From: a virus
IMG/VR virus record: IMGVR_UViG_3300033149_003257
Location: 32,001 to 96,000 of that record
DNA: 64,000 nt
Direction: 5' to 3' (one strand)
Position 1 is the stretch's first letter; every line of letters begins with the position of its first letter. Positions 1 through 44,568 of this stretch are shown piece after piece. Under the pieces are notes generated by a model. The model did no database searches. It was not told the origin of the DNA and was given only the letters and a program-made list of their open reading frames with translations. A program made the translations under genes and the position numbers.

Positions 1-498
1 ATCATAACCAATAGATGTTAAAGTGTCTGCAAAAGTAAATACTAAATTATATATAGCATCTAGTTTTTCCCATCTTTCACAATTTTCAGGAATATTATCT
101 GGTTTTGTAACTACTAAGAAATCTTCTCCATCTTTATATAAAATACTATGTTCATTATGAAGTAATAAATCTATTGGATTTTTTATTTGTAAACCACCTA
201 TATCTACTAAAAGATCATAAAATAATGGATTTATTACAGGTATAGGAAGAATTATTTTAGCAAATCTTCTTCTTCTTTCATAATTACTAACAATATCTAC
301 TCCACATTCTTTACATTTTCCACCTGAAAAAGATATACCATAATATTTTCCACATTGACAAGTATAATTTTTCAATGGACCAAAAATTTGTTCAGAAAAT
401 AATCCCTCTGAATGAAATTTTTTCTTATCCATTATTTTAGTTGAAGTAACCTCTTTCAAATCTTTACAAAATTCATTAAAATTTAAAAGTTCTGGCAT
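1..498 (-). CDS. rpoC: RNA polymerase beta' subunit, N-terminal part (second copy; runs off the window edge; missing from ORF track)
   Basis: Manual translation from ATG at 498: MPELLNF...HSEGLFSEQIFGPLKNYTCQCGKYYG...GKCKECGVDIVSNYERRRRFAKIILPIPVINP. Contains the GLFxExIFGP motif and the Cys4 zinc-binding domain of beta'; frame open to position 1. Confidence 0.9.
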   Translation of the reverse strand, partial: MPELLNFNEFCKDLKEVTSTKIMDKKKFHSEGLFSEQIFGPLKNYTCQCGKYYGISFSGGKCKECGVDIVSNYERRRRFAKIILPIPVINPLFYDLLVDIGGLQIKNPIDLLLHNEHSILYKDGEDFLVVTKPDNIPENCERWEKLDAIYNLVFTFADTLTSIGYD

Positions 499-500
499 AT

Positions 501-734
501 TTAATGCTCTCCAAATTCTTCTATAATAAAATTTGCTATTTGAATAAAATGCTCTTTTACAACTGAAGAAACCACTAAATTAATATCTGGCAACAATTCA
601 TTAACTATTTGTTTTAATTCTTCTCTACTCAATTTCTCTTCGTAATTTTTTATTATGTTTGTAATTAATTGAATTAAAGTTTCTTCAATTGTAAGTTTAT
701 TAGTTTCTATTTCATTATTATTTTCTTGTGACAT
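501..734 (-). CDS. hypothetical protein
   Basis: 77 aa ORF, GGAG upstream, packed between neighbours. Confidence 0.6.
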   Translation of the reverse strand: MSQENNNEIETNKLTIEETLIQLITNIIKNYEEKLSREELKQIVNELLPDINLVVSSVVKEHFIQIANFIIEEFGEH

Positions 735-740
735 TAATTA

Positions 741-1109
741 CTAATCTCCTTTACTTAATTGAATAAACATTGAATTTACTTTTTTATATTTTATAGATTT
801 CCACAAAGTATAATAACATTCATCAAAATAAAAAGTTCTCAAATTATTTTCAATTATATTTAAAACTGAATCTGTTGGTTCAACATTTAAATACTTATCA
901 GAAAGACAATAAATATGATTATCTGGATCACAATTTGGATGATAACCATTTAATATTATCTTTTTAATTTTTTGGTGATTCGTTATAATTAAATAACCAT
1001 TTATAATATGATCTTCTGGTAAATCTAAAATAACGTATAAACTTTTTTGGTAAATTATTCGATTTGGAATAATTCTTTTATTTATAAATAAAAAATCAAT
1101 TTTATCCAC
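741..1109 (-). CDS. putative minimal E2/UBC-fold ubiquitin-conjugating-like protein
   Basis: YHPNCDPDNHIYCL matches the E2 signature HPN-x7/8-C-L; lies directly downstream of a ThiF/E1 gene. Confidence 0.55.
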   Translation of the reverse strand: MDKIDFLFINKRIIPNRIIYQKSLYVILDLPEDHIINGYLIITNHQKIKKIILNGYHPNCDPDNHIYCLSDKYLNVEPTDSVLNIIENNLRTFYFDECYYTLWKSIKYKKVNSMFIQLSKGD

Positions 1110-1114
1110 TTTTT

Positions 1115-2086
1115 TTAAGCTGCTCCAGTTTCTTCAATTATTTCAACAAAAGAACCATCATCATCTTTATGAACACTAATAACAAAATTAGAAGTCATAA
1201 ATGGAAAATTGATCATAGAAGAAATAATAGATGTAACATCAGTAGAATCTCTTATATAACATTTAGGTATTGTTTTATTAAATAAGGAATGTTCTTTCTC
1301 ACCAAGACAAATTGTTAATGGATTCTCTTTATTTAATTTTATAATTGGAATAATATGTTCTGATAAATTTACTACTTTATCTGTTTTTTCAGTTGAATTA
1401 TAAATAATATCTATTCTTTTTGATATACTACTATCAATACTTTCTTGTAATAAATTATCTAAAAAATCTAAATGAACTCGATGTATTATTTGATTATTTA
1501 TAAAATAATAGATTTGTTTACTAGCAATTATTTGAGAAGCAAATGATGATGCTTTTTGTATATCAGATTTACTCAGTTTAATTATATATCTTCCTTCATA
1601 TTGATAATTTGTTTTTACATTTTTTCTGCAATCAATAATTAGACTTTTACCTGAAATATATAATCTAATATTTATTTCTTTTGATCTATTACATACAAAA
1701 TCTCTACAATCTATAACTAAATCACAATCAGAAAAACATTTGCATTTTTCTATATATTTATTTTTAAATTTTGTTACAGTTACATCATCTGATATAATTT
1801 CTTCTAAAACATCAACTTTAAACTTACCAATATGTTCATATTTATAAATAGATGTTTTTAGATTTTTATTTTCTACAATATCATTATCTATAATAACAAT
1901 TTCTTTTACATCACTTAAAAATGATAAGTATCTACATAAAAATCCACCTAAAGATCCCAATCCAATTATTGCAATTTTTCTTATTTTATATTTAAAATTA
2001 TCATTAAAGATATTAGTATATATAACATTTAATTTTTCTTCTTTAATCAAAGGTTCCTTATCATTTTGATATCTTTCCTCTTTCAC
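1115..2086 (-). CDS. divergent ThiF/E1-family adenylating enzyme with C-terminal extension
   Basis: IAIIGLGSLGG nucleotide-binding loop, IIDNDIVENKNL, IGKFKVDVL, DLVIDCRD. Confidence 0.8.
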   Translation of the reverse strand: MKEERYQNDKEPLIKEEKLNVIYTNIFNDNFKYKIRKIAIIGLGSLGGFLCRYLSFLSDVKEIVIIDNDIVENKNLKTSIYKYEHIGKFKVDVLEEIISDDVTVTKFKNKYIEKCKCFSDCDLVIDCRDFVCNRSKEINIRLYISGKSLIIDCRKNVKTNYQYEGRYIIKLSKSDIQKASSFASQIIASKQIYYFINNQIIHRVHLDFLDNLLQESIDSSISKRIDIIYNSTEKTDKVVNLSEHIIPIIKLNKENPLTICLGEKEHSLFNKTIPKCYIRDSTDVTSIISSMINFPFMTSNFVISVHKDDDGSFVEIIEETGAA

Positions 2087-2096
2087 AGAGAAACTC

Positions 2097-2342
2097 CTAT
2101 TGATTACTTTCCATTATATTAAGCATTTCATCAATATTGTTCTTTAGAAAAATAAGTTCTTTTTTACTTAATCTTCCCATTTTTCCATATCCAATAGTTT
2201 CATCTTTTTTTACGTAACTTCTAGTTATTTGTAACTTAATTTCTCCTTCATCATATTTCATTAAAGACATTAATAATGATTTATTGTTTTCACCATTCAT
2301 TTCAAATAATTTTATTAAGACATCTTTTTCTGGATCCCACAT
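2097..2342 (-). CDS. PC4/YdbC-like ssDNA-binding protein
   Basis: Pattern SLMKYDEGEIKLQITRSY...GYGKMGRLSKKELIFL resembles the PC4 fold. Confidence 0.45.
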   Translation of the reverse strand: MWDPEKDVLIKLFEMNGENNKSLLMSLMKYDEGEIKLQITRSYVKKDETIGYGKMGRLSKKELIFLKNNIDEMLNIMESNQ

Positions 2343-2361: not shown

Positions 2362-2398
2362 AAATAATCTGGAGAAAAAAATATTCTCCAGATTATTT
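2362..2398 (-). terminator. intrinsic terminator-like hairpin
   Basis: 15-bp inverted repeat AAATAATCTGGAGAA / TTCTCCAGATTATTT just downstream of the ORF ending at 2411. Confidence 0.7.
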
Positions 2399-3099: not shown

Positions 3100-3134
3100 A
3101 GGGGATAATATATACAAAATATATATTATCCCCT
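3100..3134. terminator. perfect 15-bp hairpin after the Ubl gene
   Basis: AGGGGATAATATATA-CAAAA-TATATATTATCCCCT. Confidence 0.6.
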
Positions 3135-3154: not shown

Positions 3155-3622
3155 CTATTTATAACCTTTTCCACCAGCTGGTTTTAGAAATTCTAAATTA
3201 TCACCAAATTGTAAAACATAACCAGATGGAACCTGTTTTCCATTAACTATTCCATCTGCCATTTTGTCAATATTTAAAACTTCCCGAAGAAATTCAGAAA
3301 CCGCACCAACTGTTTTTCCAACAACATCAAAACGACCAGATGCAGCACCACTAGAAACTAAAATTGTTGTTGTGCACCTATCACCAAATCGAGCAGATGG
3401 TTTTGTAAAGCTGCTAGTAAATACAGCACTTATGTCTGTCACTTTATTAGAATCAACATTACTAATAGAAGGAGATGCTCCATATTTTTCTAAAATTGCA
3501 TCAATAACTACATCTTTTCTTTTCTTAGACATACCCGGTATATCTAATTCATAAACACACATAGTTCTAAGATCAGCGACAGTCCTAGCTTCCAACTCTT
3601 CTCTTGTAAATTCTTTTTTCAT
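3155..3622 (-). CDS. ubiquitin-like (beta-grasp) protein with N-terminal Rho-N/HeH helical domain
   Basis: C-terminal IVNGKQV...YVLQFGDNLEFLKPAGGKG(YK) is MoaD/ThiS/PRTRC-C-like; N-terminal LEARTVADLRTMC..LDIPGMSKKRKDVVIDAIL is Rho-N-like. Confidence 0.8.
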   Translation of the reverse strand: MKKEFTREELEARTVADLRTMCVYELDIPGMSKKRKDVVIDAILEKYGASPSISNVDSNKVTDISAVFTSSFTKPSARFGDRCTTTILVSSGAASGRFDVVGKTVGAVSEFLREVLNIDKMADGIVNGKQVPSGYVLQFGDNLEFLKPAGGKGYK

Positions 3623-3634
3623 TTTTTTTTTCTC

Positions 3635-4342
3635 CTAAATAAAAGATTTTAAAAGTTTTTGCTTTGGTTTTCTAATTTTTGAGCTTGCTGACATAGTTTT
3701 TATATCAAAATATATTTCTGAGTAAGTATAATCTTTTAAAACTACAATATTATAAAAAGCCCAACACATAATTGTAGCAACTCCTAAATTAGTAAAATAT
3801 AATTGTGGATCAGACTGAGCTAATTCTTCACAAGACAAATCATCAGGATGATTATCTTGAGCATTAATTATTTCAGGATGATAATCCGTAACTTTTGGAG
3901 TTATATCAACATCATTATATCTAACATATATTTGGACATTTCCATCTGTATATTCATTACCACCAGAAATTAAAATTATATTTGATAATGTACTACAATA
4001 ATCTGAAACTATTCTTCTTGTTTTATGATTATCTACACATACAAAAACTATATCATTATTATAAATATAAGAAGAAATATTATCATCATTTAAAAATTGA
4101 GAAACAAAATTGATGTCTAAATTATTAAATTTTTTTCTCAATTCTTCCATTTTAACTTTTGATTTGTTACCTAACATCATAAAATCTTGTCTTTCAAAAT
4201 TTTTAGGTTCGTATGAATCACCATCAATTAATTTAATATGTGATTCAAAGTTATTTAAATAATTTAAAAATCTACATATTTTTTCTGATAATATAGAACC
4301 AATTCCACCCAAACCAATTATTTTAATATTAATACATTCCAT
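3635..4342 (-). CDS. ThiF/E1 ubiquitin-activating-like enzyme (PRTRC-type)
   Basis: IGLGGIGS, LIDGDSYEPKNFERQ, CVDNHKTR, ISGGNE, LSCEE (putative catalytic Cys), PQLYFTN. Confidence 0.9.
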   Translation of the reverse strand: MECINIKIIGLGGIGSILSEKICRFLNYLNNFESHIKLIDGDSYEPKNFERQDFMMLGNKSKVKMEELRKKFNNLDINFVSQFLNDDNISSYIYNNDIVFVCVDNHKTRRIVSDYCSTLSNIILISGGNEYTDGNVQIYVRYNDVDITPKVTDYHPEIINAQDNHPDDLSCEELAQSDPQLYFTNLGVATIMCWAFYNIVVLKDYTYSEIYFDIKTMSASSKIRKPKQKLLKSFI

Positions 4343-4362
4343 AACTTAATCCTTTTAAGTAT

Positions 4363-5382
4363 TTAAAATTTCAATTTATTGGAATATTCTCTATTTGTTT
4401 TAATAATATCTTCTTGGGAATTATCACTAAAATTATAATTATCTTCATCAACATAAAAAAAATCTTCAACATCTACATCTAAATAATCTTCATTATCTTC
4501 ATCCCATTCTTCTATTTGTAATTTCATTTTATAATTTCTAAATACACATTCATTACATGGATTATATTCTTCATCTTCAATATTATTATTAAATAAGCTA
4601 TAATTAATATTTCCACTTGATAAGAAAGAAGAAGAAAATGGAAAAGATTGTTGATTATTATAAAAACTATAAGGGGACATTGAAAAATTGGAAACATAAA
4701 CTCTTTCAGATACATTTTTAAGCCAATCATTAACATTATAATTACATTTATTTTCATTTATTAAATATCTTAATTTTTTAAAATTATCTACTTCTTTAGA
4801 ATCTTCAGATAAAACAAGACCATCAATATATAAAGTTGGATCTACAATAAATCTAGAACCATTCGAAACTATACATGCAGATATACTAACATTTTCAGTA
4901 GGAATATTACCAATTGTTATATGTAAACCATCAAAATATTTTTCATCGTTGATATCTATACCGGAATGAAAAGCACTCATAAAACCATGAGAATGTATAG
5001 TTGCAATCATAATATAATTTTTTGGGCTTGCATTTCTTGTATATTTAATACCGCCTGGAGAAACTTCTTGCAATGGAGAATCGAAAAAATAACTATTATC
5101 TAACAAATTATAATATATAACTATAATTGACTCTCCTTTATACAAATCATATACTTTTTTGAAAAAAGTTATAATTTTATAAAATTCTTCGTTTGAAATT
5201 TTTGGAATATCTAATTTTGCAGAAGATGAAATACTATTTAATATAGAAATATTATCAACTGGTGTTATACTTTCTAATATCCCAACTTTCTTTTTTAAAA
5301 AAATACCTTCTTTAGCAACTATATAAAATATATCATCATCTGGAATCTCTTCTATTCCATTATTAATAAAAATTTTAAACAC
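4363..5382 (-). CDS. JAB/JAMM metallopeptidase (deubiquitinase-like) with acidic tail
   Basis: TIHSHGFMSAFHSGIDINDE = HxH-x7-S-xx-D JAMM motif; upstream Glu in KGESIIV; DGLHITIG. Confidence 0.9.
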   Translation of the reverse strand: MFKIFINNGIEEIPDDDIFYIVAKEGIFLKKKVGILESITPVDNISILNSISSSAKLDIPKISNEEFYKIITFFKKVYDLYKGESIIVIYYNLLDNSYFFDSPLQEVSPGGIKYTRNASPKNYIMIATIHSHGFMSAFHSGIDINDEKYFDGLHITIGNIPTENVSISACIVSNGSRFIVDPTLYIDGLVLSEDSKEVDNFKKLRYLINENKCNYNVNDWLKNVSERVYVSNFSMSPYSFYNNQQSFPFSSSFLSSGNINYSLFNNNIEDEEYNPCNECVFRNYKMKLQIEEWDEDNEDYLDVDVEDFFYVDEDNYNFSDNSQEDIIKTNREYSNKLKF

Positions 5383-5387
5383 TATTT

Positions 5388-8042
5388 TTATTCTCCTATA
5401 ATATTAATAATTTCTTTGGGGTCTACCATAATCCCATACTCTCTACGAACATTCGTATCTTTTATTTCTGTATAAGAATTATGAAAAGTTGGAATTACTT
5501 TTTTAAATTGATTTTGATTTACAATTTGTTTTAAACTTTTTCTCGGATTTAATATTCCATATCTAGATATTATACCATTTTTTCTAAAATGTCGTGCATA
5601 AGAATGAGAATACTCATCTTTTATAATATTGACTAAATATTTTTTGTGTAATGGTTCATAACTAGAATTTTCTAACATAGTTATGTTATTATTCATAGTC
5701 TCAAAAATGTCACCACCTTGAAAACCAAAAGTAGAGAATAAAATAGAATCATGATTTATTTTTGACCATGATGGCATATCTTTTGTATATAGTTCAAAAT
5801 TTTCTAACAAATCATCAAACCAAATAGTACAACAGTTTGAACATAAAACTAAAGGTTGATTACAACCAGTATCTGTTAAAAAAGCAACAATAATATTTGC
5901 TTTACTTTTTGGAAAACATTTTATTCCTTTTACCTTTGCTTTTATCTTAGTTCCAACTTTTACACCATTATATTCCGAAGAAACATGTCTAATTGTTCCA
6001 GCATTTATTATTCCAGTTCTAAAACTAATAAAATTTTTCTCATAATTAATATTATCATTACTATTCATTGAAATTACCAAATGATGAAAATCATTTACTG
6101 AAAAATTTGTAATTTGTCTAATTTTTAACATATCTACTGGATTTCTCCAATCTACAAAAATAACTTTATCTCCTAGTGAAAATTGTATATCTAAATCAAA
6201 ACTTCTGATTTTAACATGATCATCAGCTAATATATCTTGTATATTAAAATTTCTATTATAATCTAATTTATCAAGTTGATCAATATAATATCCATCTTTT
6301 CTAACATTTATAATTAAATTCTTACTACTATGCTGTAAATATAATCCATTTCTTACAGTTGAAACCATATTAGCATCATTATTTTCAGTTTCATTAACAA
6401 TATTATGATAATTAAAAAAACTATTTATGTCATAAATTTCTACTTCTTTATTACTGTTTTCAAATATACATCCTAAAACATTATCTTCTGTTTCTGTATC
6501 AAAAGCAACAAATTTTAATAATTTATAAAAATGAATAATTGGACTAAATATTCTTCTACTTTTTTTCATACGTTCATTAAAATAATATTTCTTTCCTATT
6601 TCCAATTTAGTACCATTATTTAATACTATATTATTTAAATCTATATGCTCAGCGACAATAGAATCAGATAAATAATTATAATTATCTGTTATTATTTCTG
6701 CTTTACCATCGTAATTAATTCTAATTTTATTTACCTTATTATAAATACCTTCTATTGGAAAAGTAATTTTAATAATATCTCCGCTTTTTATTGTTACACC
6801 ATTTTTTAAAATAATTTCAGATAAAGAATTTGTATCAAAAATTTGATTCATATATTGCATAAATTTATTAGTTAATTTATACTTTACTACTTTACTATTT
6901 TCTCTATCTTCAAAATTAATATATCTAACTTCTTCAAAATTATTCTCAAAACTATTCTTAAAAATTAGAGAATATATATATTTAACTCTTCCATTATTAA
7001 ATTTAACGGAATCTCCAACAGACAATATACGATCATTTAAATAAAGATTTTTTGAAAAACTTTCTACAAGTGTATAATATTCTTCACCTTCTTCACTTAT
7101 TTCTAATTCATCTACAACATCAATACCTTCACTAAAAAAAGAAACTATATCAAAATAACCTATAATATTTTGTCTGTTTTTCTTGATCTTTTTTTGTATA
7201 AGTGTTTCTACTAATCCCTTCAAATGGACGTTAGCCTTTAACCAATTTACATTAAATATAAACATTGGATCTTTCATAGAATAATAAGACCATGTTAAAA
7301 AATCAGATAACTCTAAAGGTCCTTCTCGTTCGTAATCAATATAATGATATGAATAATCTTTATTAAATATATTTTTCCAGAATGCATTAATATAAGCTTC
7401 AATAGTTTCGTTACAGTTTCCATATGTATATTTATTAGTAATTTCGCCTAAACAAACAGAATAATTTGTATTAATATTTGTTAAATTCGGTTTTAAAAGG
7501 TCATCTTCTAAAGAACCAAATGGAGATAATTTAAAAAATACTTTCATTTCTTTTACTATAGGACCATCAAAAATAAATATATATATAATATAAGGAAATG
7601 ATAAAGATATTTTGTATGGAGATTTATTTTCTTGAAGGAAATTTTGTAAATTAAATATATCTATTTTTCCTTCAATTTTTAATTTTTCAATTATAGCTTC
7701 AAAATTAAAATCTATAAAAATAGTTCTTATTCTTGGTTGTTCTTCAATAACAAATATTTTTTTATGTGTTAAATCTTTAAAAAATCTACAGTTTTTAGGA
7801 AGCAACATATCTAAATCAGCATGTGAATCTTGTATTAATATTTTCTGCATATGCTTAAAAAAATCACTTGTGAGTAATGAAAATTTATTTGAAAAAGGTA
7901 CTACATTAGCTTCAGCTTCATTGATATCTTTTTCTACTAAATTTAATTCAGATATTTTTTCATTACTAAATGCTTTTATATTATATAAACCTGTTTTATT
8001 TCTATCAATAATTATACAATCATTTGTTGACATTGTTGACAT
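5388..8042 (-). CDS. large protein with prokaryotic E2-fold (family D / PRTRC-B-like) domain and repeated beta-rich C-terminal modules
   Basis: LSFPYIIYIF...VFFK...LLKPNLTNINTNYSVCLG...INAFWKNIFNKD matches the P-x-x-N...VC-G...FW-x-S/N-x-F pattern; first gene of the E2-JAB-E1-Ubl operon. Confidence 0.75.
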   Translation of the reverse strand: MSTMSTNDCIIIDRNKTGLYNIKAFSNEKISELNLVEKDINEAEANVVPFSNKFSLLTSDFFKHMQKILIQDSHADLDMLLPKNCRFFKDLTHKKIFVIEEQPRIRTIFIDFNFEAIIEKLKIEGKIDIFNLQNFLQENKSPYKISLSFPYIIYIFIFDGPIVKEMKVFFKLSPFGSLEDDLLKPNLTNINTNYSVCLGEITNKYTYGNCNETIEAYINAFWKNIFNKDYSYHYIDYEREGPLELSDFLTWSYYSMKDPMFIFNVNWLKANVHLKGLVETLIQKKIKKNRQNIIGYFDIVSFFSEGIDVVDELEISEEGEEYYTLVESFSKNLYLNDRILSVGDSVKFNNGRVKYIYSLIFKNSFENNFEEVRYINFEDRENSKVVKYKLTNKFMQYMNQIFDTNSLSEIILKNGVTIKSGDIIKITFPIEGIYNKVNKIRINYDGKAEIITDNYNYLSDSIVAEHIDLNNIVLNNGTKLEIGKKYYFNERMKKSRRIFSPIIHFYKLLKFVAFDTETEDNVLGCIFENSNKEVEIYDINSFFNYHNIVNETENNDANMVSTVRNGLYLQHSSKNLIINVRKDGYYIDQLDKLDYNRNFNIQDILADDHVKIRSFDLDIQFSLGDKVIFVDWRNPVDMLKIRQITNFSVNDFHHLVISMNSNDNINYEKNFISFRTGIINAGTIRHVSSEYNGVKVGTKIKAKVKGIKCFPKSKANIIVAFLTDTGCNQPLVLCSNCCTIWFDDLLENFELYTKDMPSWSKINHDSILFSTFGFQGGDIFETMNNNITMLENSSYEPLHKKYLVNIIKDEYSHSYARHFRKNGIISRYGILNPRKSLKQIVNQNQFKKVIPTFHNSYTEIKDTNVRREYGIMVDPKEIINIIGE

Positions 8043-25739: not shown

Positions 25740-28700
25740 TTATCTCCCTAACATAAGTGATACAAAATAAGAATTTAATAATTCTCTAGTTGGTGATGAT
25801 TTAGATTCTCTATATTCTGCTGAACCTGTTTGAATAATATCTGAAATAATCTCATTTTTTGTAACATGATCATCACTTAATGGTCCAAAAAATTCAGATA
25901 AAATTTTTGGACAATTATAAGACACTAAAGCCCAAGTATCTTGTTCACCAACTCTTTGTCCTCCTTCTCGTCTCTTTCCAGATAATGGTTGTAAAGTTTT
26001 TTGTTTAACTGGACCAGTAGATCTAGTATGTATTTTTGAAGAAGCAAGATGTTCCATTTTTTCAATATACATATAACCAATCGGAACAACATTATAAGTT
26101 TTTGTATTAAATTCTGGAAGTTTTAAATAATAACCAGATTTTAAATTTAATATTTTCATACATTGTAAAATATCTTTATAAGATGGTGCTTTAAAAGGTG
26201 GAATAATTATTGGAACAAAACCATTATTTTTAATTTGATTAATCATTTCTTTAAATTTATTATCACTCATTTTAGAAATATTATTAGTTAAAGATGATAT
26301 AAATTTTTGTCCTTTTGATTTATCTAATGGTTTTAAAACTGAATTTAAAATATTTACTACCTTAGATTTTGTATTATTTTCTATTATTATATTTGCTAAT
26401 TTTTTTGAAATTAAACCACAATATAATTCATATATTTGACCCATATTCATTCTACCGATGACTCCGAGTGGATTTAAAATAATATCTACTGTTTCACCCC
26501 AAGGAGTTCTGGGCATCAAAGAATCTTTTTCAATTAATGAAATAATACCTTTGTTTCCATATCTATTACATAATTTATCTCCAATTTGAACTTTTAATTC
26601 TTGTTCAATTTTAAATTTTATAAGTACACCTTTTATAGAAACTCCTCTTATTGTAAACCGTTCTTTTTTCTTTCTTTCATATCTTTTATTAGTTCTTTTA
26701 ATTAAATCTTGTAATATTGGAAACTTATCTTCATTAATATTACAAAACACCTCTATATCAACAACTATTCCACCAGGACTTTTCTTTATATATTGACCAG
26801 AAGATATTTCTGAATTTTCATCTTCTAATTCTTCTATTCCAATTAATTCTTCTATTTCTCCAATTGATCTCCTTAAAAGAGGTTTTCCTTTTTCAATATG
26901 TTCTCCAATTTTACAAATATATAATAATCTATCTTCAGAAGATACAGGAGCTTCTTCTATAATACCATGTAATGAAGTCAACATATCATTAGAAACCAAT
27001 CTTTCATTTATAACAATTCCATCTTCAAAATTATATCCTTTATATGGCATAAGAGCTACTAATAAAGTTCTGCCTAAAGATATACTTCCTCCAGATACAC
27101 AAGCTCCTTCAGCAACTATTTCATTATTCTTTACAATCTGACCTTTTTTAACTTTTACTTTAAAAACACTTAATGTATCTTTTCCAGAACCAGATTTCAA
27201 ATGAAATGGTGATATATCTAGTTCATGTTTATCACCATTTTTACATATAATAATAATACTATCTTTTGTTATATTAAAAACTTTACCATTACATGGAGAT
27301 CTTTTAATAAAACTATCAGATAATACATTACTAAGAATAGACTCATAACCAGATTGTATTACCGGAGGTGATGGATTTTTTAATGGTAATGCTTGTCTTG
27401 CTTGACTACATGAAAACATAACTCTTGGACCATCATTATTTTCTATAAATGGAACCATACAAGAAGCAGATGACAACATTCCAGAATATTCATTGTCAGA
27501 AATATCTTTTGTTGTAAATAAACCTCTAGCAGATGTAATTAAAGCATCAACAGTTAAATATTGGATAATTCCAACATTACTACCTTCTGGAGTATCCAAT
27601 GGATCAATATTTCCAAAATAAGATGGATGTACATTTCTAGCTTCTAATTGTATAGCTCCCTTATCTGGGATTCCACCAATATTCTTTCCAACAGGAGAAA
27701 CTCTTGTCATAACTGATAATTCTTCAATAGGATTTGCATATTCCATATTAGAAACGATTTCAGAATTTATAAAATCTCTTAAAACTTTATCTGAAACTAA
27801 GTTAAACACTGCATTTTTATTTCCAGATAATACTTGTTCTTTATATTCTGTATAAGCAGCAAGAATTTGTTTTTGTGCTAAATTTACCAAAACTTCTGAA
27901 TTTCTTATTCTTTGATTAGATAAATCATTTCTTTTTTCTTCAAAACCAGTTACAACTTTACTGGCCATATATTTCATAATATCATCTAATTCAGTAGGTA
28001 ATTGTTTATTTACTAAAATTTGTTTAACAACCGGATCAACAATATTTTCTAAATTAGTTGATAAGAGATAAGTAGAATTTACTCTTCCAGTAATTTTTGT
28101 AATTAAACTATTAAAATACTCTTTACTTCCAAAAGGATATTGTATATTAAATTCATCCGGTTTACTTCTAGAAAAAGATTCACATAATTCAAATTTTAAA
28201 TCATTATCTACATTCTCAAAAACAACATATTCATTTTCATTTATTTTTGTAAACATCTCATCTTTTTTGGGTTTACTTTGAACAATTTTATATTTTAAAT
28301 TATATTTCTTAATTGTATTTTCAAAACCAAAACTATAACATAAAACTATAAATAATGATAATTTATATGAACCCATATATATTTCTAACCAATGATTTTT
28401 TCTGGTTCTTTTACTTTGTATATGAAATTTTGAATATGAACTTTCAAATTTCGAATCATAAGCTTTTGGAAATGTTATTGGACATAAAACTAATTGATTA
28501 ATTAAAATCTTCTTATCACCATTTAATCTAAAAACTCCAAATTTATCAATTTTAGGAACTTCAATTTCAACTTCATGTGTATTACCAAACTCATCTTTTA
28601 AAATTGTTTTTATAATAGATATATCAGATTTATCTATTTCAGTTGCTTTACTTTGTTTATCAACAATATTCATAGATACTATTTTTAATGGAATTTCTTT

Positions 28701-29831
28701 CCTTTCTAAAACTTTAAAAGAATTTTCCATATCTTTTTTCAAATTAATTTCAAAATCAATTTGTCTCTTTTGAAACAAATGTTCTGGTGATTTATCATCA
28801 ACCATTTTTGGAATATTTAATAACTCATTTATCATATTATCAGATAAAGAAATAGTTTTCTCTGGTTTTAATAATTCATCTGAATATGTATTATCAACAT
28901 TTTTTAAAGCTGTTTTAGTTTTATCTTTTGGAATCATTTTAGATAATCTATTAGATTTTTCCAAATCTCCACTAGTTTGATAAAGTATTGAAGCAACTGT
29001 TAATTTATCTATTTCTTCATCATTTAATTCATCTGAATTTATAGAATCTACTAAATCTGGTTGATTTTTTAAATAAGAAGATACTGCATTTTGAACTTTT
29101 GAAGAAGTATTCTTATTAATTACATCAGACACTTTTTTAATAACATTAGTAGATGCTTTATTAACTTCTACTTCCTCATCTTTTTCTAGATCAATTAATT
29201 TAATATTTCGAACATATTGTAATAATCTAGAAAATTGATAATTTTTATCTTTTATTAAAACTCTATATTTTGAACTATCAAGAGAGACAATATTTAATAA
29301 CATATGATCAAATAGAAAGTCATTATCTTTTAATTGCTGAACAATTGGAAATATCTTTCTATTAACAAATTGATTTAAATTTTTTGTAACATTAATAGAA
29401 TAAAATAAAACCTTTCTATAATTTTGTGGAAATTCATCTTGTATTTTTAGTAAAATATTCTTAATTAAAAATCCAGATCTTTGTCTATAATTAGTCGGTT
29501 TATAAATAGAATCTATTGCTTGTAAATAAGCTGATAAATCAAAAAATAAATTTTTATCAGAAGGAAATTTCATTGCAGTACTAAAAGCAAATAATTTATA
29601 GGATTTATATAATTTTCTAGTATCAGATAATAATCTTGTTCTCGGTATTTTTGTAATTGGAATAACAACATTTTTAACATCAATATTTCTAATTCCTAAT
29701 TTTGTATAATCATCTAATAATGTAGAATTTTCAGGAAAGAAAATAAGTAAATAAGGTCTTTCTCTATCTTGAGGAAATCTAATATTACTTACTACTCTTG
29801 TATATTGTTTTATATCATCAAATTTTAACAA
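25740..29831 (-). CDS. rpoB: DNA-directed RNA polymerase beta subunit (phage, unsplit, N-terminally extended)
   Basis: RNVHPSYFG..DP.DTPEG, GYNFEDG, GDKLCNRYGNKG, NPLGVIGRMNMGQ, EHLASSKIHTRSTGP, GGQRVGEQD. Confidence 0.95.
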   Translation of the reverse strand: MLKFDDIKQYTRVVSNIRFPQDRERPYLLIFFPENSTLLDDYTKLGIRNIDVKNVVIPITKIPRTRLLSDTRKLYKSYKLFAFSTAMKFPSDKNLFFDLSAYLQAIDSIYKPTNYRQRSGFLIKNILLKIQDEFPQNYRKVLFYSINVTKNLNQFVNRKIFPIVQQLKDNDFLFDHMLLNIVSLDSSKYRVLIKDKNYQFSRLLQYVRNIKLIDLEKDEEVEVNKASTNVIKKVSDVINKNTSSKVQNAVSSYLKNQPDLVDSINSDELNDEEIDKLTVASILYQTSGDLEKSNRLSKMIPKDKTKTALKNVDNTYSDELLKPEKTISLSDNMINELLNIPKMVDDKSPEHLFQKRQIDFEINLKKDMENSFKVLERKEIPLKIVSMNIVDKQSKATEIDKSDISIIKTILKDEFGNTHEVEIEVPKIDKFGVFRLNGDKKILINQLVLCPITFPKAYDSKFESSYSKFHIQSKRTRKNHWLEIYMGSYKLSLFIVLCYSFGFENTIKKYNLKYKIVQSKPKKDEMFTKINENEYVVFENVDNDLKFELCESFSRSKPDEFNIQYPFGSKEYFNSLITKITGRVNSTYLLSTNLENIVDPVVKQILVNKQLPTELDDIMKYMASKVVTGFEEKRNDLSNQRIRNSEVLVNLAQKQILAAYTEYKEQVLSGNKNAVFNLVSDKVLRDFINSEIVSNMEYANPIEELSVMTRVSPVGKNIGGIPDKGAIQLEARNVHPSYFGNIDPLDTPEGSNVGIIQYLTVDALITSARGLFTTKDISDNEYSGMLSSASCMVPFIENNDGPRVMFSCSQARQALPLKNPSPPVIQSGYESILSNVLSDSFIKRSPCNGKVFNITKDSIIIICKNGDKHELDISPFHLKSGSGKDTLSVFKVKVKKGQIVKNNEIVAEGACVSGGSISLGRTLLVALMPYKGYNFEDGIVINERLVSNDMLTSLHGIIEEAPVSSEDRLLYICKIGEHIEKGKPLLRRSIGEIEELIGIEELEDENSEISSGQYIKKSPGGIVVDIEVFCNINEDKFPILQDLIKRTNKRYERKKKERFTIRGVSIKGVLIKFKIEQELKVQIGDKLCNRYGNKGIISLIEKDSLMPRTPWGETVDIILNPLGVIGRMNMGQIYELYCGLISKKLANIIIENNTKSKVVNILNSVLKPLDKSKGQKFISSLTNNISKMSDNKFKEMINQIKNNGFVPIIIPPFKAPSYKDILQCMKILNLKSGYYLKLPEFNTKTYNVVPIGYMYIEKMEHLASSKIHTRSTGPVKQKTLQPLSGKRREGGQRVGEQDTWALVSYNCPKILSEFFGPLSDDHVTKNEIISDIIQTGSAEYRESKSSPTRELLNSYFVSLMLGR

Positions 29832-29842
29832 AAATTAATCTC

Positions 29843-32839
29843 CTAAAAAGTTCCAGATAAAATTCTATCTAAAATAGATGGTTCAAATTTATCTTCACTT
29901 GTTAACCCGGTTTGTATAGCTTTTCCAATATTTTCAAAAGCTAGTCCACTAACAAAACTAGAATTGAATATAACTTCTTTTATATTTATCAAAACTGGAT
30001 CCCATGTTTTTCCCAATCTTGCTGGAATATTAATATCATCTTTATTTCTTAAAACATTACTCATTAATACTTCTATATGAACAGAATCCATATCTCCTGA
30101 TGGCCATTTATTAGTTATTTTTTTAAATAAATTAGTAGTATCTTTAAACAACTCTCTTCCACCAATTAATCGTTCCATATAATTAGCTTGATCTTTTAAT
30201 TCACTAGTTTCTAATGACGTTTCTAAAATAATATCTCCTTGTTTATAATTTAAAACAATTTGTTTATTAATTTCCTCAAAATTTCTTTTTTGTATAATAA
30301 CAGAATAATCCAAAACTATATTAAATATTAAATTATCAAACTCTATTGTCGAAATTAAATTAGATACCCATATAGAATTATCTTCAATACGAATATTATT
30401 ATTCATATTATAAACATTTAAATCAAGTTTTAAAATACAATCTTTTTTACAAATTAAACCATTTTCTTCTTGTTGTATATACTCATTTAACTTATTTTCA
30501 TTTATATCTAATAAAGGATCATTTTCTAAAATATCTTTTAATAAATTTTTATCAGTTATTGAAACTGCTCCGCCAAGGTGAAACGTTCGCATGATTAGCT
30601 GGGTTCCTCGTTCCCCAATAGCCATCCCAGCAATTGTTCCAATATATGGAGATTTATGTCTTAACAAAAGTTTCCCATAACAGGTATGACATATTTTATA
30701 AGATTTACAAAATATTGGAGATCTTAATTGAATAGTTTCTCCAACTTTATGTTCTTCCGGAATAAACTCTTCTATTCTTCCTTTATTTAAAAAATATCTT
30801 CCTTTAAGTCTTTTTATTAAATCTTTATCTAATCTTACATTTAAATATTTTTTTGTTCCACAATCTTTTAAATATGGATCTGCTTCAACATTACTTAACA
30901 AATAAACAAGTTTACGAGACAAATAACCTGTAGTAGACGTATTCAATGCACGGTCAATCATTCCTTTTCTACCGCCCTGAGACATCTCAAAAAATTCTTT
31001 ATTTGTTAAACCATCAGAATATGATCCACTAATTGGATCTAAAACTTTACCAGTTGGATCTGCAATAATACCCTTTGCTATTAAAATTTGTGTTGGTTGA
31101 TCCCATCCTTTTGCTGCTCCAGATTCAACTAGATCATATAATCCAGTATTTTTTAAATGTTTTATCAATATTTGTTTAGCTTTATTAATTAATATAGATG
31201 CTTGTTCAACTGTTGCTCCATTTATTTGTTTTTTTATTTCATAAATTTCATCTGGAAGTTCTATATCATCAATTTTTATAGATGGAGCAGAAATAGTAGC
31301 AAATTTAAAACCAATCTTCTCTAATTTAGAAAAGACATCTATAGCAATATTTTCACCATACTTTTCTAGAATTGTATTAATATAACTATTTATAATTTTT
31401 TTCGTTACTGTTTTATCTATAAATTCAAAATCAGGCGGAAAAGCATTATTTAAAATTGCTTTCCCCATGGTAGTATTTTTTCCTCTAAATTTAACTGGAA
31501 TATATGGATTAGTAGCATTTTCTAAATCTTCTTCATTAACTATTATAGGAGACTTATTTATCAATACATTTTTTGTTATAATATATAAACCAACAGCCAT
31601 TTCTTTAGAAAGGTCAAATGAAACATCTGTTGAAGAAGTTCCAGTTGTTCCTTTCATCATTTTCTCTTTAGCTTCTTGTTGAGCTTCATTTGTGAGAGGA
31701 TGATAAATAGCCATAACATCACCATCGAAATCAGCATTATGTTGACCAACTTGTAATGTACATACTTGAATAGTATCGCCTTCAATTAATCTAGGATAAT
31801 ATGCTCTATAAGATTCAGCATGTAAAACTGGATCTCTTTTCGCTAATACTACTCTACCTTCCATTACTGATTCTGTAGCATCAAAAAATATTTTATACAA
31901 CTCATCTGGAATAACATCTTTATTACGAATTGCTTTAATAACTCTCTGAACACTATCAACAGATAAACTAACATTATCAAAATTTTTTATTTCATCTTCC
32001 AAATTACTCTCATTAATTTTACCAGAATATAATAAACGATGAATTAAAAATGGTTCAAATAAAGTAGTAGCCATTCTAAATGGAATACCAATTTCATTAA
32101 CTTTTAAATTTGGTCCAGGAACAATAACTCCTCTTCCACTAAAATCTACTCGTTTTCCCATTAAATCAGATCGTATTAAACCACTTTTCTTTTGTATTCT
32201 ATTTTGAATAAAAGCATCATGATTAATAACTGCTTGTTGAACTCCATATGATAATAAATCAAATAATGGTCCACTTTTACTAACAGTTTTTATTTGAAAA
32301 GATTTTCTTAAAATTGATAAATATATTTCATTTAATTCGTCACTTGTCCAATTCCCAGATTCATCTTGAAAAATTGGTCTAAAATCTGGTGGAATTACAG
32401 GAACTTTACTTACAAATAAAGTTTTATCTTTATATGATCTTTGTAATAATTCTATAAAATTCTCTCTAGTTTTAGTTTCTCCTCTAAATTTTATATTTGG
32501 AAAAATATCAATAAAATTTGATAATCCTGTTACACCATCTGGATCAATTTTTAATGTTCCATCTTTATCTAAACTAAAATTTTCTTCCGTTGATATAAAT
32601 TTCTCTATTCTTCTATCTAATCTATATAAAATTTTATAAGCAGATGGATGAATAACTTCTATATTAATATCAATATATGAATATTTTTTCGTTCTATCAA
32701 TTGATCCAACTACTCCGAATATACTTTCAGAAAATAAACCCTCTGGATTAAAATCTCCACCTCTAGTAAAAAATTCTGTAGAAGTAATTGGAGTTAAATT
32801 AGATACAAATTTATTCACATCAAGAAATTTAATAAACAC
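29843..32839 (-). CDS. rpoC: DNA-directed RNA polymerase beta' subunit (phage, lacks N-terminal Zn domain)
   Basis: GLFSESIFG, PVIPPDFRP, GKRVDFSGR, NADFDGD catalytic motif, TGYLSRKL, QLIMRTFH. Confidence 0.96.
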   Translation of the reverse strand: MFIKFLDVNKFVSNLTPITSTEFFTRGGDFNPEGLFSESIFGVVGSIDRTKKYSYIDINIEVIHPSAYKILYRLDRRIEKFISTEENFSLDKDGTLKIDPDGVTGLSNFIDIFPNIKFRGETKTRENFIELLQRSYKDKTLFVSKVPVIPPDFRPIFQDESGNWTSDELNEIYLSILRKSFQIKTVSKSGPLFDLLSYGVQQAVINHDAFIQNRIQKKSGLIRSDLMGKRVDFSGRGVIVPGPNLKVNEIGIPFRMATTLFEPFLIHRLLYSGKINESNLEDEIKNFDNVSLSVDSVQRVIKAIRNKDVIPDELYKIFFDATESVMEGRVVLAKRDPVLHAESYRAYYPRLIEGDTIQVCTLQVGQHNADFDGDVMAIYHPLTNEAQQEAKEKMMKGTTGTSSTDVSFDLSKEMAVGLYIITKNVLINKSPIIVNEEDLENATNPYIPVKFRGKNTTMGKAILNNAFPPDFEFIDKTVTKKIINSYINTILEKYGENIAIDVFSKLEKIGFKFATISAPSIKIDDIELPDEIYEIKKQINGATVEQASILINKAKQILIKHLKNTGLYDLVESGAAKGWDQPTQILIAKGIIADPTGKVLDPISGSYSDGLTNKEFFEMSQGGRKGMIDRALNTSTTGYLSRKLVYLLSNVEADPYLKDCGTKKYLNVRLDKDLIKRLKGRYFLNKGRIEEFIPEEHKVGETIQLRSPIFCKSYKICHTCYGKLLLRHKSPYIGTIAGMAIGERGTQLIMRTFHLGGAVSITDKNLLKDILENDPLLDINENKLNEYIQQEENGLICKKDCILKLDLNVYNMNNNIRIEDNSIWVSNLISTIEFDNLIFNIVLDYSVIIQKRNFEEINKQIVLNYKQGDIILETSLETSELKDQANYMERLIGGRELFKDTTNLFKKITNKWPSGDMDSVHIEVLMSNVLRNKDDINIPARLGKTWDPVLINIKEVIFNSSFVSGLAFENIGKAIQTGLTSEDKFEPSILDRILSGTF

Positions 32840-38630: not shown

Positions 38631-39809
38631 CTAACATATTTTAGTTGCTAAATTTCCAGTAGAACATTCTGTTCCAGATTTATGCCCATATTTATAATGA
38701 CAATCTTTACAAACTGAAATTGCATAATCTGGATCTAAAGCAAAAAATGGTTCTAGTTTTTGTGGTCTTGTGTGATGTACATATTCTGCTTTTTCTCCAC
38801 AATAAATGCACTTGTAATCATCTCGTTTTAATACTTCTTCTCTAAATACTTGATATTCTTCTGAAGTATAATAAAGATCATTCCCTTTATATGTTCCTTG
38901 TTCTATTTCTACTTCTTTAATAATTTGTTTTACTGTTTTTTTATAAAGTGGACAAATTTGTTTACATTCTTGTGAACAATATAAATAACCAGCATCATTT
39001 CCATTATCTCTTTCTAAACAAATAATTCTTTCATATAATTGGATATATGTTGGAGTAAACCAACCATTCATCTCTTTCGAATTAGGACAATTATGATTCT
39101 TACAATGTACTTGTATTTCTTTTTCTCCAGGCTTATCTGGATTATATCTCATCTCTTCTATTTTAGAAAAGAAAGGATATCTCTTCTTTATTTGTTTTAT
39201 AGTAATTTTATTTTTTGTCTTTCCCTTATTATATTTACTTATTTTTTTCCTTGTCTCTTTAGAAACTTTTCTTCCTTTATTAATATTACTTAACTTCTCT
39301 TTAGTTTCTTTTGAAAGTTTTTTTCCTTTATTAATTTCGCTTAATTTTTTCTTATGTCTTTCAGAGAAATTTTTCCCTTTATGAGATTCACTTAGCTTTG
39401 TTCTGGTTTTTTCAGAAATCCTTCTTCCTTTATTAGATTTACTTATTTTTTCTTTATGATCTTTAGAACGTATCTTACCCTCATTAGCTTTTCCTATTTT
39501 TTTCTTATGCTCCTCAGAGAGATTTTTACCTTTTTGAGAATTACTCATCTTCTTTCTAGTTTCTTCAGAACAAATTTTACCCTTTTTTGATCTACTCATT
39601 TTCTCTAAAGTTTCTTCACTTAAATTTTCTCTTTTATGTAATTCACCCATTTTCTTTTTAGTTTTTTCAGTATGTGTTATACCCATACTATTTTTACTAT
39701 TTTTCTTCCTTATATTTGGACATTTATTCTGAGTTTTTTCACAACACCATTTCCCATTTTTAAACTGATATTTCGCTTCTCTTCCACAACCATAGTCACA
39801 AATTATCAT
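38631..39809 (-). CDS. NUMOD3-repeat HNH homing endonuclease-like protein (copy 1)
   Basis: CDYGCG N-terminus, many SEETRKKMS repeats, [11 protein letters not shown]...VHH...CKDCH. Confidence 0.85.
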
Positions 39810-40321
39810 TTTATTACAAACCTTCTAACCATAGATATAATTATTTCTTTATCCACAAAATCACCCGGACAAGTTAGTTCTTTATTATCAGACACTTCTC
39901 TATGAAGTTTAATTTTAGCAGGAGATATTTTGAATAATTTTAAAGCAGGATTTAAGATTTTATAAGCAAGGACTTCATATAATCTCTTTTCCGGCACTTT
40001 AAAATCGTAACTGCCCAACAAAGCCACGTGCAATGCTCTATTATTTATATCATCAGAAATATCTGGCCAATCACATAAATAAGAAAATGGTCTACAAATA
40101 ACAGGTATATAATCATCTTTTATCTTATCAATAACATAATGATATTCAACGTCTCCTTGTTTCTTTTCTAAAACTCCTTTAAATATACCATACATTTGAT
40201 ATTTAGGATTATCAATTCTAACTTCTGGAGCATCATATAATTCAGCAGTATGATGTAAAATTATCCATTTTATACTTTGTCTTCTAATCTTCAACATGCT
40301 TGGTTTAAAAGGTATTTTCAT
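39806..40321 (-). CDS. N-acetylmuramoyl-L-alanine amidase (Amidase_2-like)
   Basis: IILHHTA, YHYVID, LHREV, TCPG. Confidence 0.8.
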
Positions 40322-40322
40322 A

Positions 40323-41060
40323 TTAACTCCGTGCTCTTAGACTCAAAACTTTAATTCTATCTATACCATTATTTATAGATTCTGCAGCAGAATTCATTTT
40401 TCCTTGAACAGAAGATACAGAAGCATTCATATTTAAAATATCAGAAGCAGAAATTCCAGCATCTGTATATATAGAATCTGTATCTAGTATTCCAGAATCA
40501 CTAATTTTCATCGCTGACATTGCAGAATTTAATGCTGCAGTTTCTGAAGATACATCGACTCCCAAGTCATCTAAACAAGTCAATAAAGCATCAGCATCTG
40601 AAATTAATTCTGAAATTCCTAAACTATCAAATATTTTTGTAATATTACTCATACTTAATGAAATCGAAAATTCTGGAAGACCAGATGCAATAGTGGAAAT
40701 TGCTGTAGATATACCACTTCTTAAATCATTTAATAAATCTTTTGAAGCATTTCTAATTAAATTAAATGGATCACTCAAAATATCATGATTTTTTAAAAAT
40801 TCACAACCATTAATTAATGTTTGCAAATCATTAAAAGTAGAAACAGTAGTAAAATCTGGAATATCAACATTAGTAGAAATAGTATTAGCAGCATCTTCAA
40901 TATCTTGATATGGAGAAAATACAGCACCACTTAAATCACTTACAACTGAATCAATTCTATTAGATATATCTGTTTGAGCATCTGTAAGAACATTTAAACT
41001 AGCATTAAAATTAGATAACAAAACATCTTCGACTGATGTTTGTAAATTAACTTGTACCAT
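40323..41060 (-). CDS. probable virion (baseplate-associated) protein
   Basis: Ser/Asp/Ala-rich helical protein directly after the gp5-like gene; start taken at MVQVNLQ to avoid a 120-nt overlap. Confidence 0.6.
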   Translation of the reverse strand: MVQVNLQTSVEDVLLSNFNASLNVLTDAQTDISNRIDSVVSDLSGAVFSPYQDIEDAANTISTNVDIPDFTTVSTFNDLQTLINGCEFLKNHDILSDPFNLIRNASKDLLNDLRSGISTAISTIASGLPEFSISLSMSNITKIFDSLGISELISDADALLTCLDDLGVDVSSETAALNSAMSAMKISDSGILDTDSIYTDAGISASDILNMNASVSSVQGKMNSAAESINNGIDRIKVLSLRARS

Positions 41061-41061
41061 A

Positions 41062-42210
41062 TTATGTATCCCTTTCTCCTTCTGGGGTTGCATCAATAGC
41101 TGGAGTTGCAGGTTGAGCATCTTTCGAAGCAGTTGCATCACCAGCATCAGAAGCAGAATCACTTCCTTGCATATCAATTCCATTTGAACATTTTACAACT
41201 ATTCTATCATCAGTTTCCAAAATTATTTTATCAACTGTTTTACTATGCATTTCTTCACCAGATTCACTATACATATTTTCTGCAGCTTTAATATTTATAT
41301 CCTTATCAGATTCCATATTCATATCATCACCTGATTTATGATGCATTTTTTCGTCTGCTTCTACATATGTATTTTTATCTGATTTAACATATAAATTTCT
41401 ATCTGTCGATTGAGTCATATCTTTTCCAGATTTAATATTCATCTCATAAACAGACTCTTGATTTAATTTTTGATTAGATAAAATATTCATATCTTCCAAA
41501 GATTCATGATACATAGATTTATGAGATTTCACATGAATATTTTCTAAAGCAGTTAAATAAATTGATTTATGACTCTTTATTTCTATATCATCAGCAAACT
41601 CAGCCTGAAGTTTTCTTTCATCTATATCAATATGAAAAAAATCTCCATGAACAGTACGAATTAAAACTTTTTCTTTACCCTCTCTTTCATCAAAGAGAAT
41701 AGTCGTCATATTATCATCTATTTGATAAACACTTTCAGTATCACCAGTTGGTGGATTTGTCATTTGTCTCTTCTTGCCACCGATTTCAACTCTTTCGTCA
41801 TCCGGATCATCTGATAATACAATAACTCTACCCATATGAGTTTTTAAAACTGTCCATTTATCTTCATAATTAGTTCCAAGTTGATTTTCCGGCAGAACCA
41901 TTGTATTTTCTAAATCAAGTGCACCAAAATAATATGGATTATTTATATCTCCAGCTTCAAAAAAACACCACATCCAAGAACCAATTTTCGGAATATATGA
42001 TGATCCAGAATAATGGTGTTCAGAATCATTTTCCATATTTCGACCACCCATAGGATTATTTCCAGGACGCGCCCACACTCCAGTCTCATCACTTACATCT
42101 GGCATAAGAACAGGAATCCATATTAATACCCTACCAAACTTCTCTGGATCTTTGTTATTTACAACTTTACATCTATAAAACCCAAAAAGTGGTCCGGAAA
42201 GATCATTCAT
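41062..42210 (-). CDS. baseplate hub/spike, gp5/VgrG-like
   Basis: OB-fold YRCKVVNNKDPEKFGRV...IPKIGSWMWCFFEAGDINNPYYFG; 8-residue beta-helix repeats. Confidence 0.88.
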   Translation of the reverse strand: MNDLSGPLFGFYRCKVVNNKDPEKFGRVLIWIPVLMPDVSDETGVWARPGNNPMGGRNMENDSEHHYSGSSYIPKIGSWMWCFFEAGDINNPYYFGALDLENTMVLPENQLGTNYEDKWTVLKTHMGRVIVLSDDPDDERVEIGGKKRQMTNPPTGDTESVYQIDDNMTTILFDEREGKEKVLIRTVHGDFFHIDIDERKLQAEFADDIEIKSHKSIYLTALENIHVKSHKSMYHESLEDMNILSNQKLNQESVYEMNIKSGKDMTQSTDRNLYVKSDKNTYVEADEKMHHKSGDDMNMESDKDINIKAAENMYSESGEEMHSKTVDKIILETDDRIVVKCSNGIDMQGSDSASDAGDATASKDAQPATPAIDATPEGERDT

Positions 42211-42221
42211 TTAAAATATCC

Positions 42222-43244: not shown

Positions 43245-43259
43245 GTAACATACTCCATA

Positions 43260-44150: not shown

Positions 44151-44165
44151 TTTATTATCTTCTCA

Positions 44166-44555
44166 TTACCATGCTATAGAAGTAAGATCTACAACATCCT
44201 TTTCAGGAAAATTATCTTGACAAATAGTCACAATTGCTTGATATGAAGGAATAACAACAGTATCTAAATCAAAATCTTCCATACAAGCAACATTATTTAC
44301 AAACATTAAAAGTTGTGATAAAACAACCGTGCCATATTTATCATATGAAAGATTATATGGTTTAAATCTATATTGTGGTTGAAATTTTTCTAGTGTTGAA
44401 TTTCTTAATAGAAAAAATAAATTTTTTTCTATTGTCCATAATGTAGGAGATACAAAAGAATAATAATCATTATCTGTCTTATATCTATCAGCCATTCTAT
44501 CCATATTTATTGGTAGACTTTTTTGCTGAAGAGACTCATCTTTTATTGTAATCAT
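44166..44555 (-). CDS. LysM/gp53-like baseplate wedge protein
   Basis: PYNLSYDKYGT...LLMFVNN...VVIPS pattern. Confidence 0.6.
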   Translation of the reverse strand: MITIKDESLQQKSLPINMDRMADRYKTDNDYYSFVSPTLWTIEKNLFFLLRNSTLEKFQPQYRFKPYNLSYDKYGTVVLSQLLMFVNNVACMEDFDLDTVVIPSYQAIVTICQDNFPEKDVVDLTSIAW

Positions 44556-44568
44556 TTAAATATCTCCT

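Follow-up and report, generated by a model that had tools for sequence, protein, structure and literature searches.

A two-gene kit encoding an E1-like protein (E1') and a minimal E2-like protein (E2') lies beside RNA polymerase (RNAP) genes in a large, uncultured tailed phage, and is common to more than 100 relatives of this phage. The reading that we favour, with somewhat better than even confidence, is that the pair works as a module by itself: E1' would activate the C-terminal tail that it carries and hand it to E2'. If this is true, an E1 can act as its own tag, a terminal Ala can stand in for Gly-Gly in a ubiquitin-like (Ubl) register, and the chemistries of a Tyr-type E1 and a Cys-type E2 can possibly mix. 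The prokaryotic Ubl conjugation systems in the papers cited below are host-encoded and mostly anti-phage; E1'-E2' is phage-encoded, lineage-wide and composed of two small genes.

The window, that is, the whole stretch of DNA analysed, comprises 64,000 nucleotides (positions 32,001 to 96,000 of IMG/VR record IMGVR_UViG_3300033149_003257). The record is a 152-kb tailed phage with a GC content of 24.8%, in which terminase and baseplate genes are present. It carries two complete beta/beta' RNAP pairs, one at 25740-32839 of the window and one at 26752-32498 of the whole record (G000), with NADFDGD intact in both beta' subunits, so that the second rpoC reported by the first-pass annotation is borne out. 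The two pairs are possibly virion and non-virion polymerases. The gene content matches that of mReC phages, which combine tailed-phage genes with beta and beta' RNAP (PMC7481178), a likeness drawn from gene content; ThiF, JAB and ubiquitin are not mentioned in that paper. A Cys-rich motif is shared at the start of many ORFs at 39000-45500 of the window and elsewhere in the record, and these ORFs probably represent a homing endonuclease family or a repeated Zn-binding domain. The genes around the pair are the following.

1-498, minus strand: 5' end of the second RNAP beta' gene (rpoC), 901 aa in the whole genome, followed by beta
501-734, minus strand: 77-aa ORF between E2' and rpoC, found in most related loci
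741-1109, minus strand: E2', putative minimal UBC-like enzyme of 122 aa, GTG start, 134 homologues
1115-2086, minus strand: E1', 323 aa, ThiF/E1 domain (residues ~35-222) plus a fused C-terminal candidate modifier, GTG start, 167 homologues
2097-2342, minus strand: 81-aa ORF (so-called PC4-like), accessory, in 18 of 82 related loci

The E1-like and minimal E2 ORFs are indeed where they had been placed, 5 nt apart (1110-1114). They had also been described as lying directly upstream of rpoC, which has to be corrected, as the conserved 77-aa ORF intervenes. This ORF has no family match; it is conserved next to rpoC even in L069-L071, which lack E2' and where it measures 116-140 aa, and it may encode an accessory RNAP subunit of the phage. 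No Pfam or PDB match backs the PC4-like label of the 81-aa ORF.

Locus counts refer to 120 non-redundant loci anchored on E1', with denominators that vary by feature. E2' adjoins E1' in 107 of 111 non-redundant loci, stop and start often overlapping, and rpoC lies within 1.8 kb of E1' in all 93 loci (93/93), so both the E1-E2 co-occurrence and the linkage to rpoC that the first-pass annotation had proposed as checks hold in relatives. Some members of the clade (L246, L262 and L275) have rpoC without an upstream E1'-E2', indicating that the polymerase gene does not depend on that neighbour. In three loci (L069-L071), E1' persists together with its tail although E2' is not adjacent; throughout the clade of L069, L070, L071 and L302, Tyr167 and the tail are kept, the adjacent E2' is absent and residue 153 is Ser or Thr in place of Cys. 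None of the cultured phages and plasmids searched has a full-length relative, and the sole full-length GTDB match stands on a MAG contig of 10 kb, where the genes are arranged as in the phage. Locus L169 (CBDUWI010000019.1), binned in a bacterial MAG, shows the full phage gene order; it is probably a mis-binned phage fragment and offers a possible lead to a host. In another virus (L168:8976-10624), a different 225-aa ThiF gene, outside the E1' family, follows a 322-aa ORF.

The E2 assignment is carried by the active-site motif.

906-908, minus strand: E2' Cys68, putative active-site Cys
933-941, minus strand: E2' His57-Pro-Asn59, HPN motif

The HPN...C signature claimed for the 122-aa ORF spans residues 57-68 and is conserved in homologues. 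A profile-free search found 134 relatives, of which 122 were aligned; His57 and Cys68 are the sole invariant columns at a mean column identity of 17%, and Asn59 occurs in 99%. The spacing from HPN to Cys is 8 residues, as in Pex4, in 89 of 117 locus-derived copies. In about 50,000 ORF residues of this genome, the pattern HPN-x7/8-C is matched once, by E2'. Since the signature is conserved family-wide, it is not a chance occurrence.

The AlphaFold2 (AF2) model of E2' has a pLDDT of 95.5, and each of its first 25 structural matches is an entry with a UBC fold or an E2; they agree with the UBC-like fold that had been anticipated, but the matches are weak (best Z 4.8, rmsd 3.6, 90 aligned residues). 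Foldseek likewise returned UBC-type matches at a non-significant E of 0.2, and PF00179 is matched by only 2 of 122 members, below threshold. E2' shares with eukaryotic UBC E2s (PF00179) the HPN-x8-C-hydrophobic motif, the beta-meander and the active-site helix, but falls below the Pfam threshold, has an extra N-terminal strand set, and in its model lacks helix 1 and the C-terminal helix pair. We read E2' as a minimal E2, for which the motif is firm and the modelled fold consistent but weak. In P0180, P0181, P0190 and L139:10882-11700, E2' is duplicated or fused in tandem with one copy minus Cys or HPN, reminiscent of an E2/UEV pair.

A second conjugation-type cassette, similar to 6d/PRTRC operons, lies upstream of the pair, beyond a hairpin.

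2362-2398, minus strand: stem-loop of 15 bp, T-rich tail, ahead of the E1'/E2'/rpoC unit
3100-3134: second 15-bp inverted repeat, which together with 2362-2398 brackets a 208-aa ORF
3155-8042, minus strand: 6d/PRTRC-like cassette (Prok-E2_D-like, JAB, ThiF, Ubl)
3155-3622, minus strand: cassette Ubl, ending G-x-K-G
3635-4342, minus strand: cassette ThiF, with normal NxERQ and crossover Cys
4363-5382, minus strand: cassette JAB
5388-8042, minus strand: Prok-E2_D-like protein, without HPN

E2' therefore differs in type from the protein at 5388-8042, as had been noticed. A Rho_N-like domain (E=1e-9 in a homologue) lies at the N-terminus of the cassette Ubl and may link the first cassette to nucleic acid or RNAP. 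The G-x-K-G end of this Ubl recurs in 100 homologues; about one third of them add a Cys, and the protein of this phage adds two residues.

The first-pass annotation had taken the pair for a further branch, or a relay, of the cassette's pathway. In such a scheme the Ubl handled by E1'-E2' would be that of the cassette, and E1' would have in its C-terminal domain either a docking site for E2 resembling a ubiquitin-fold domain (UFD) or an autoinhibitory pseudo-substrate. Canonical E1s do recruit their E2 by a C-terminal UFD (10.1101/2022.03.31.486616), and the Ubl gene lies within 2.2 kb in 81 of 82 loci of the E1'-anchored set. Nevertheless, each module is found without the other at syntenic sites. 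E1'-E2' is kept and the syntenic interval holds no cassette in L126, L129, L131, the P0073 contig, L245 and L296, and the cassette is kept with no E1'-E2' nearby in L262, L339, L344, L346 and L365, all on incomplete contigs where either module may have been relocated. Moreover, E2' lacks helix 1, which is the usual UFD-binding surface of UBC proteins, and E1' has a candidate tag of its own (see below).

The distribution of hairpins also argues against a relay. Two 15-bp stems were found, compared with 0.3 +/- 0.6 in shuffled sequences. In related loci, stems of at least 9 bp follow the Ubl gene in 34 of 98 cases, but downstream of E1' or of E2' and ahead of rpoC they occur in 0-1 of about 100, in windows that are mostly coding; relatives have G/C-run stems at the same junction. 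The hairpin at 2362-2398 is likely a transcription boundary, and E1', E2', the 77-aa ORF and rpoC probably form one transcription unit, apart from the cassette. The co-transcription with rpoC that had been suggested is thus plausible, from linkage and stem-loop distribution. The two 15-bp repeats could be terminators or phage promoter hairpins; a sigma-70 promoter scan gave background level. Separate gain and loss, together with the hairpin between the modules, speak against E1'-E2' being a branch of the upstream cassette, and we regard the relay as rather improbable. In the clade of L131, an acyl-carrier-like (PP-binding) gene (L131:2425-2739) stands where the 6d cassette is missing.

The adenylation domain of E1' has the following features.

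1586-1588, minus strand: Tyr167 in the predicted crossover loop, which precedes helix 173-188; present in 213/213 sequences
1700-1711, minus strand: DCRD motif, residues 126-129; R128 replaces Thr in close members
1850-1867, minus strand: KNLKTS loop, residues 74-79; N75 in 94%, Arg at position 78 in 8%
1943-1963, minus strand: GxGxxGG nucleotide-binding loop, residues 42-48; G42, G44 and G47 in 100% of 211 sequences

E1' matches Pfam ThiF at E=2.5e-14 (53.4 bits against a cut-off of 28.1), and its AF2 model has a pLDDT of 84. The closest structure is the Cap2 E1 (7tsq; Z 18.5, rmsd 3.8, 177 aligned residues), and MoeB scores Z 16.6. Across 213 E1' sequences, the G-loop, D67, D69, K90, D126, D129 and R134 are conserved at 99-100%, in a family whose members go down to 30-45% identity; K90 (100%) aligns with the phosphate-binding K86 of MoeB, and D129 (99%) with the Mg-binding D130. 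As judged from these residues, the ATP/Mg site is kept.

Other parts of the site are altered. E1' has KNLKTS at residues 74-79, as had been reported, where E. coli MoeB and ThiF have SNLQRQ; the E1' loop is one residue shorter, and the arginine of NLxRQ (R73 in MoeB) is lost across the whole family. In most members, which start at strand 1, the N-terminal segment with the Arg finger (R14 in MoeB) is also absent. The proposal that adenylation is altered therefore stands as far as the arginine is concerned, and does not extend to the nucleotide loop, K90 and the Mg-binding Asp, which are kept. R128 might substitute for the lost arginine; it is S, T or A in four divergent members.

With the NLxRQ arginine and the R14 segment missing, the activity of E1' could be low or absent. 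It could then be a scaffold, the inactive half of a heterodimer with the upstream ThiF, or a decoy tail that jams host E1s of the CBASS/Bil type, and the absence of a crossover Cys and the resemblance to the Cap2 E1 would fit such roles. We find this very doubtful. Even at 30-45% identity, hardly any sequence departs from the G-loop, K90, D126 or D129, the partner E2' keeps its invariant His and Cys, and mutation of the adenylation Arg in Bub only reduced activity (PMC11601596). Moreover, the adjacent ThiF is missing in two lineages that bear E1'.

No conserved crossover-loop Cys was found in the E1' family: C153 is present in 90% and the other Cys residues of the loop in at most 27%. C153 was rejected as the catalytic Cys, being replaced by F, G, S or T in 10% of members. 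The sole invariant residue of the crossover loop in 213 sequences is Tyr167, which is kept in 16 of the 18 divergent rows that cover the position and is Phe in L245 and L296 (one lineage). By analogy with Bub, Tyr167 is a candidate oxyester nucleophile. L245 (6884-8322) and L296 are the most divergent pair, with a Cys later in the loop and a tail ending Met-Gln-Ala.

The first-pass annotation had missed that E1' carries a fused C-terminal domain with a conserved Ala-ended tail.

1115-1132, minus strand: fixed-length tail ETGAA plus stop, with codons that overlap the ribosome-binding site of E2'
1118-1375, minus strand: fused C-terminal domain, residues 238-323 (~85 aa); a helix, then beta-beta-alpha-beta-beta in the AF2 model

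In 213 close members, the tail has Glu in 92%, Thr in 92% and Gly(-3) in ~100%, then Ala, Ser or Gly, and a terminal Ala in 96%; where the last residue is not Ala it is Thr or Ser, and a free conserved C-terminal Gly is absent. Counted from the C-terminus, Pro(-6) and the hydrophobic residues at -8 and -10 align with the tail of E. coli MoaD, a register that puts the terminal Ala at the position of the reactive terminal Gly of MoaD. Pro(-6) is also common to the phage's own Ubl.

As the tail codons overlap a ribosome-binding site, its conservation could have been a by-product of that site. Codon usage and a comparison with control genes led to the rejection of this reading: the Gly and both Ala are each encoded by all four codons, and Gly-Glu/Asp is never seen, whereas one neighbour gene ends in Gly-Glu, as an overlapping ribosome-binding site predicts, and the tails of other neighbour enzymes are unconserved. 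The codon variety and the control-gene tails show that selection acts on the tail peptide itself. Readthrough of the stop codon after E1' was rejected as well, as all three stops are used.

Sequence and profile comparisons of the C-terminal domain with MoaD, ThiS and the phage Ubl gave no similarity, and an Atlas search was empty; by contrast, the phage Ubl matches MoaD at E=0.003. No stand-alone gene for the domain was found among shorter proteins or 57 IMG/VR tail matches, nor did a split form turn up among divergent E2' contigs or loci anchored on rpoC and ThiF; coevolution analysis gave noise (effective depth ~149). On the strength of its modelled topology, the domain is a candidate beta-grasp built-in modifier. 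The tail in the monomer model is of low confidence (pLDDT 46) and does not dock in cis. When the adenylation dimer and the C-terminal domain were predicted as a complex, the score was 0.60 against 0.00 for the best control, with run agreement of at least 82%, a partner pLDDT of at least 78 and no contacts given. The mark for this score was reached by 58 of 80 solved and 2 of 110 mismatched pairs, 7 of the 80 solved pairs and both mismatches reaching it at no more than 0.60, and the partners here both come from a single gene, as its halves, and may score by likeness to solved E1-Ubl complexes; the prediction thus gives weak support.

If the fused domain is a modifier, its last two residues might first be removed by JAB to expose a Gly, as in Bil and Bub pre-proteins. 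Gly(-3) is found in ~100% of the 213 close members, a JAB gene is usually nearby, and in Bil, where BilA is cut after its conserved Gly, an Ala following that Gly blocks ATP and needs trimming (PMC10557695). However, Bil extensions vary in length and sequence (PMC10557695), while that of E1' always consists of two small residues; the register shared with MoaD and the phage Ubl already places Ala323 at the reactive position; and an adjacent JAB is absent in some lineages. In addition, eight divergent members without Gly(-3) still keep the terminal Ala, and the divergent members had been found via rpoC or E2' and were not picked by their tails. Loss of Gly(-3) with retention of Ala favours an untrimmed Ala, and we hold trimming by JAB to be highly unlikely. 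Least probable of all is an activation of the C-terminus for chemistry other than on protein lysines (lipid, nucleic acid, small molecule or sulfur), for although MccB, PaaA, TcdA and MoeB score near Cap2 in the structure search, E1' appears obligately coupled to an HPN-Cys E2 and sulfur-relay or rhodanese genes are absent nearby.

We propose that the E1'-E2' module works in three steps. The Ala-ended tail of one chain would enter the adenylation site of the ThiF homodimer and be adenylated with ATP/Mg, with no trimming. There is a precedent in Cap2, the E1 of which adenylates the Ala-ended tail of a CD-NTase, also when this tail is fused to the E1 (10.1101/2022.03.31.486616). The activated tail would then pass to Cys68 of E2', less certainly, through an oxyester on Tyr167 or by direct attack of the Cys on the adenylate. 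The E1 Cys of Cap2 is dispensable in vitro (10.1101/2022.03.31.486616); for transfer from a Tyr oxyester to a Cys thioester, no precedent was found in the literature. Finally E2', with its HPN motif, would join E1' in its entirety to an amine of the target. The unit continues into rpoC-rpoB, so the module likely acts in the same infection stage as this polymerase. That RNAP or the transcription machinery is the target is a guess from the order of the genes in a phage clade of high synteny. The most complete version, in which E1' is its own modifier, its Ala is adenylated and passed from a Tyr oxyester to the Cys of E2', and E1' is attached to phage or host transcription proteins, we consider unlikely.

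A literature search, mostly of open-access papers, found no paper on this E1'-E2' layout, and the closest known systems each share some of its features. Type II CBASS Cap2 also has a homodimeric ThiF-type E1, a substrate with an Ala-ended tail and conjugation of a whole large protein (10.1101/2022.03.31.486616). There, however, E2 and E1 are fused and the substrate is the CD-NTase tail, whereas the phage has separate E1 and E2 genes, E1' lacks a crossover Cys and the candidate substrate is its own tail. No CD-NTase or effector neighbours were found in 164 loci, and PADLOC matches to E1' cover the N-terminal ThiF part only.

Bub (6E/DUF6527) resembles the module in having an E1 without crossover Cys and an E2 without C-terminal helices, and perhaps in the Tyr of the E1. 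Bub E1s have no crossover Cys and use an invariant crossover Tyr, as shown by mutation (PMC11601596); Tyr167, by its predicted loop position, may correspond to Y370 of BubCD. BubCD and BubB are among the structural matches, with Z 15.3 and 3.6. In contrast to E2' with its HPN-Cys, the Bub E2 uses Ser, and the phage module has neither a JAB-E1 or E2-E1 fusion nor a separate or E2-fused Gly-ended Ubl; DUF6527 (BubE) had no match among the flanking proteins scanned.

Like the phage, Bil (BilABCD) has separate E1 and Cys-type E2 genes, and its tag precursor can end in Gly-Ala (PMC10557695). BilD, however, has an IAD-AAD-CYS architecture with a catalytic Cys and Zn, whereas E1' has a single adenylation domain, and the match of BilD to E1' is 15 bits over 67 residues. 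Moreover, BilA is a separate gene, the product of which is trimmed by BilC, and Bil is a host defence.

Operon type 6d/PRTRC, in the part of Iyer, Burroughs and Aravind 2006 (PMC1779556) considered here, describes the phage's upstream cassette (E2_D, JAB, ThiF, Ubl), from which the E1'-E2' pair differs in lacking E2_D, JAB and a separate Ubl; E1' and the upstream ThiF have only 29 aligned residues in common. In the fusions covered by that part of the paper (PMC1779556), the Ub-like domain is N-terminal to ThiF and has no free C-terminus. The E1'-E2' module resembles conjugation by Cap2, Bil and Bub, yet is a member of none of these systems.
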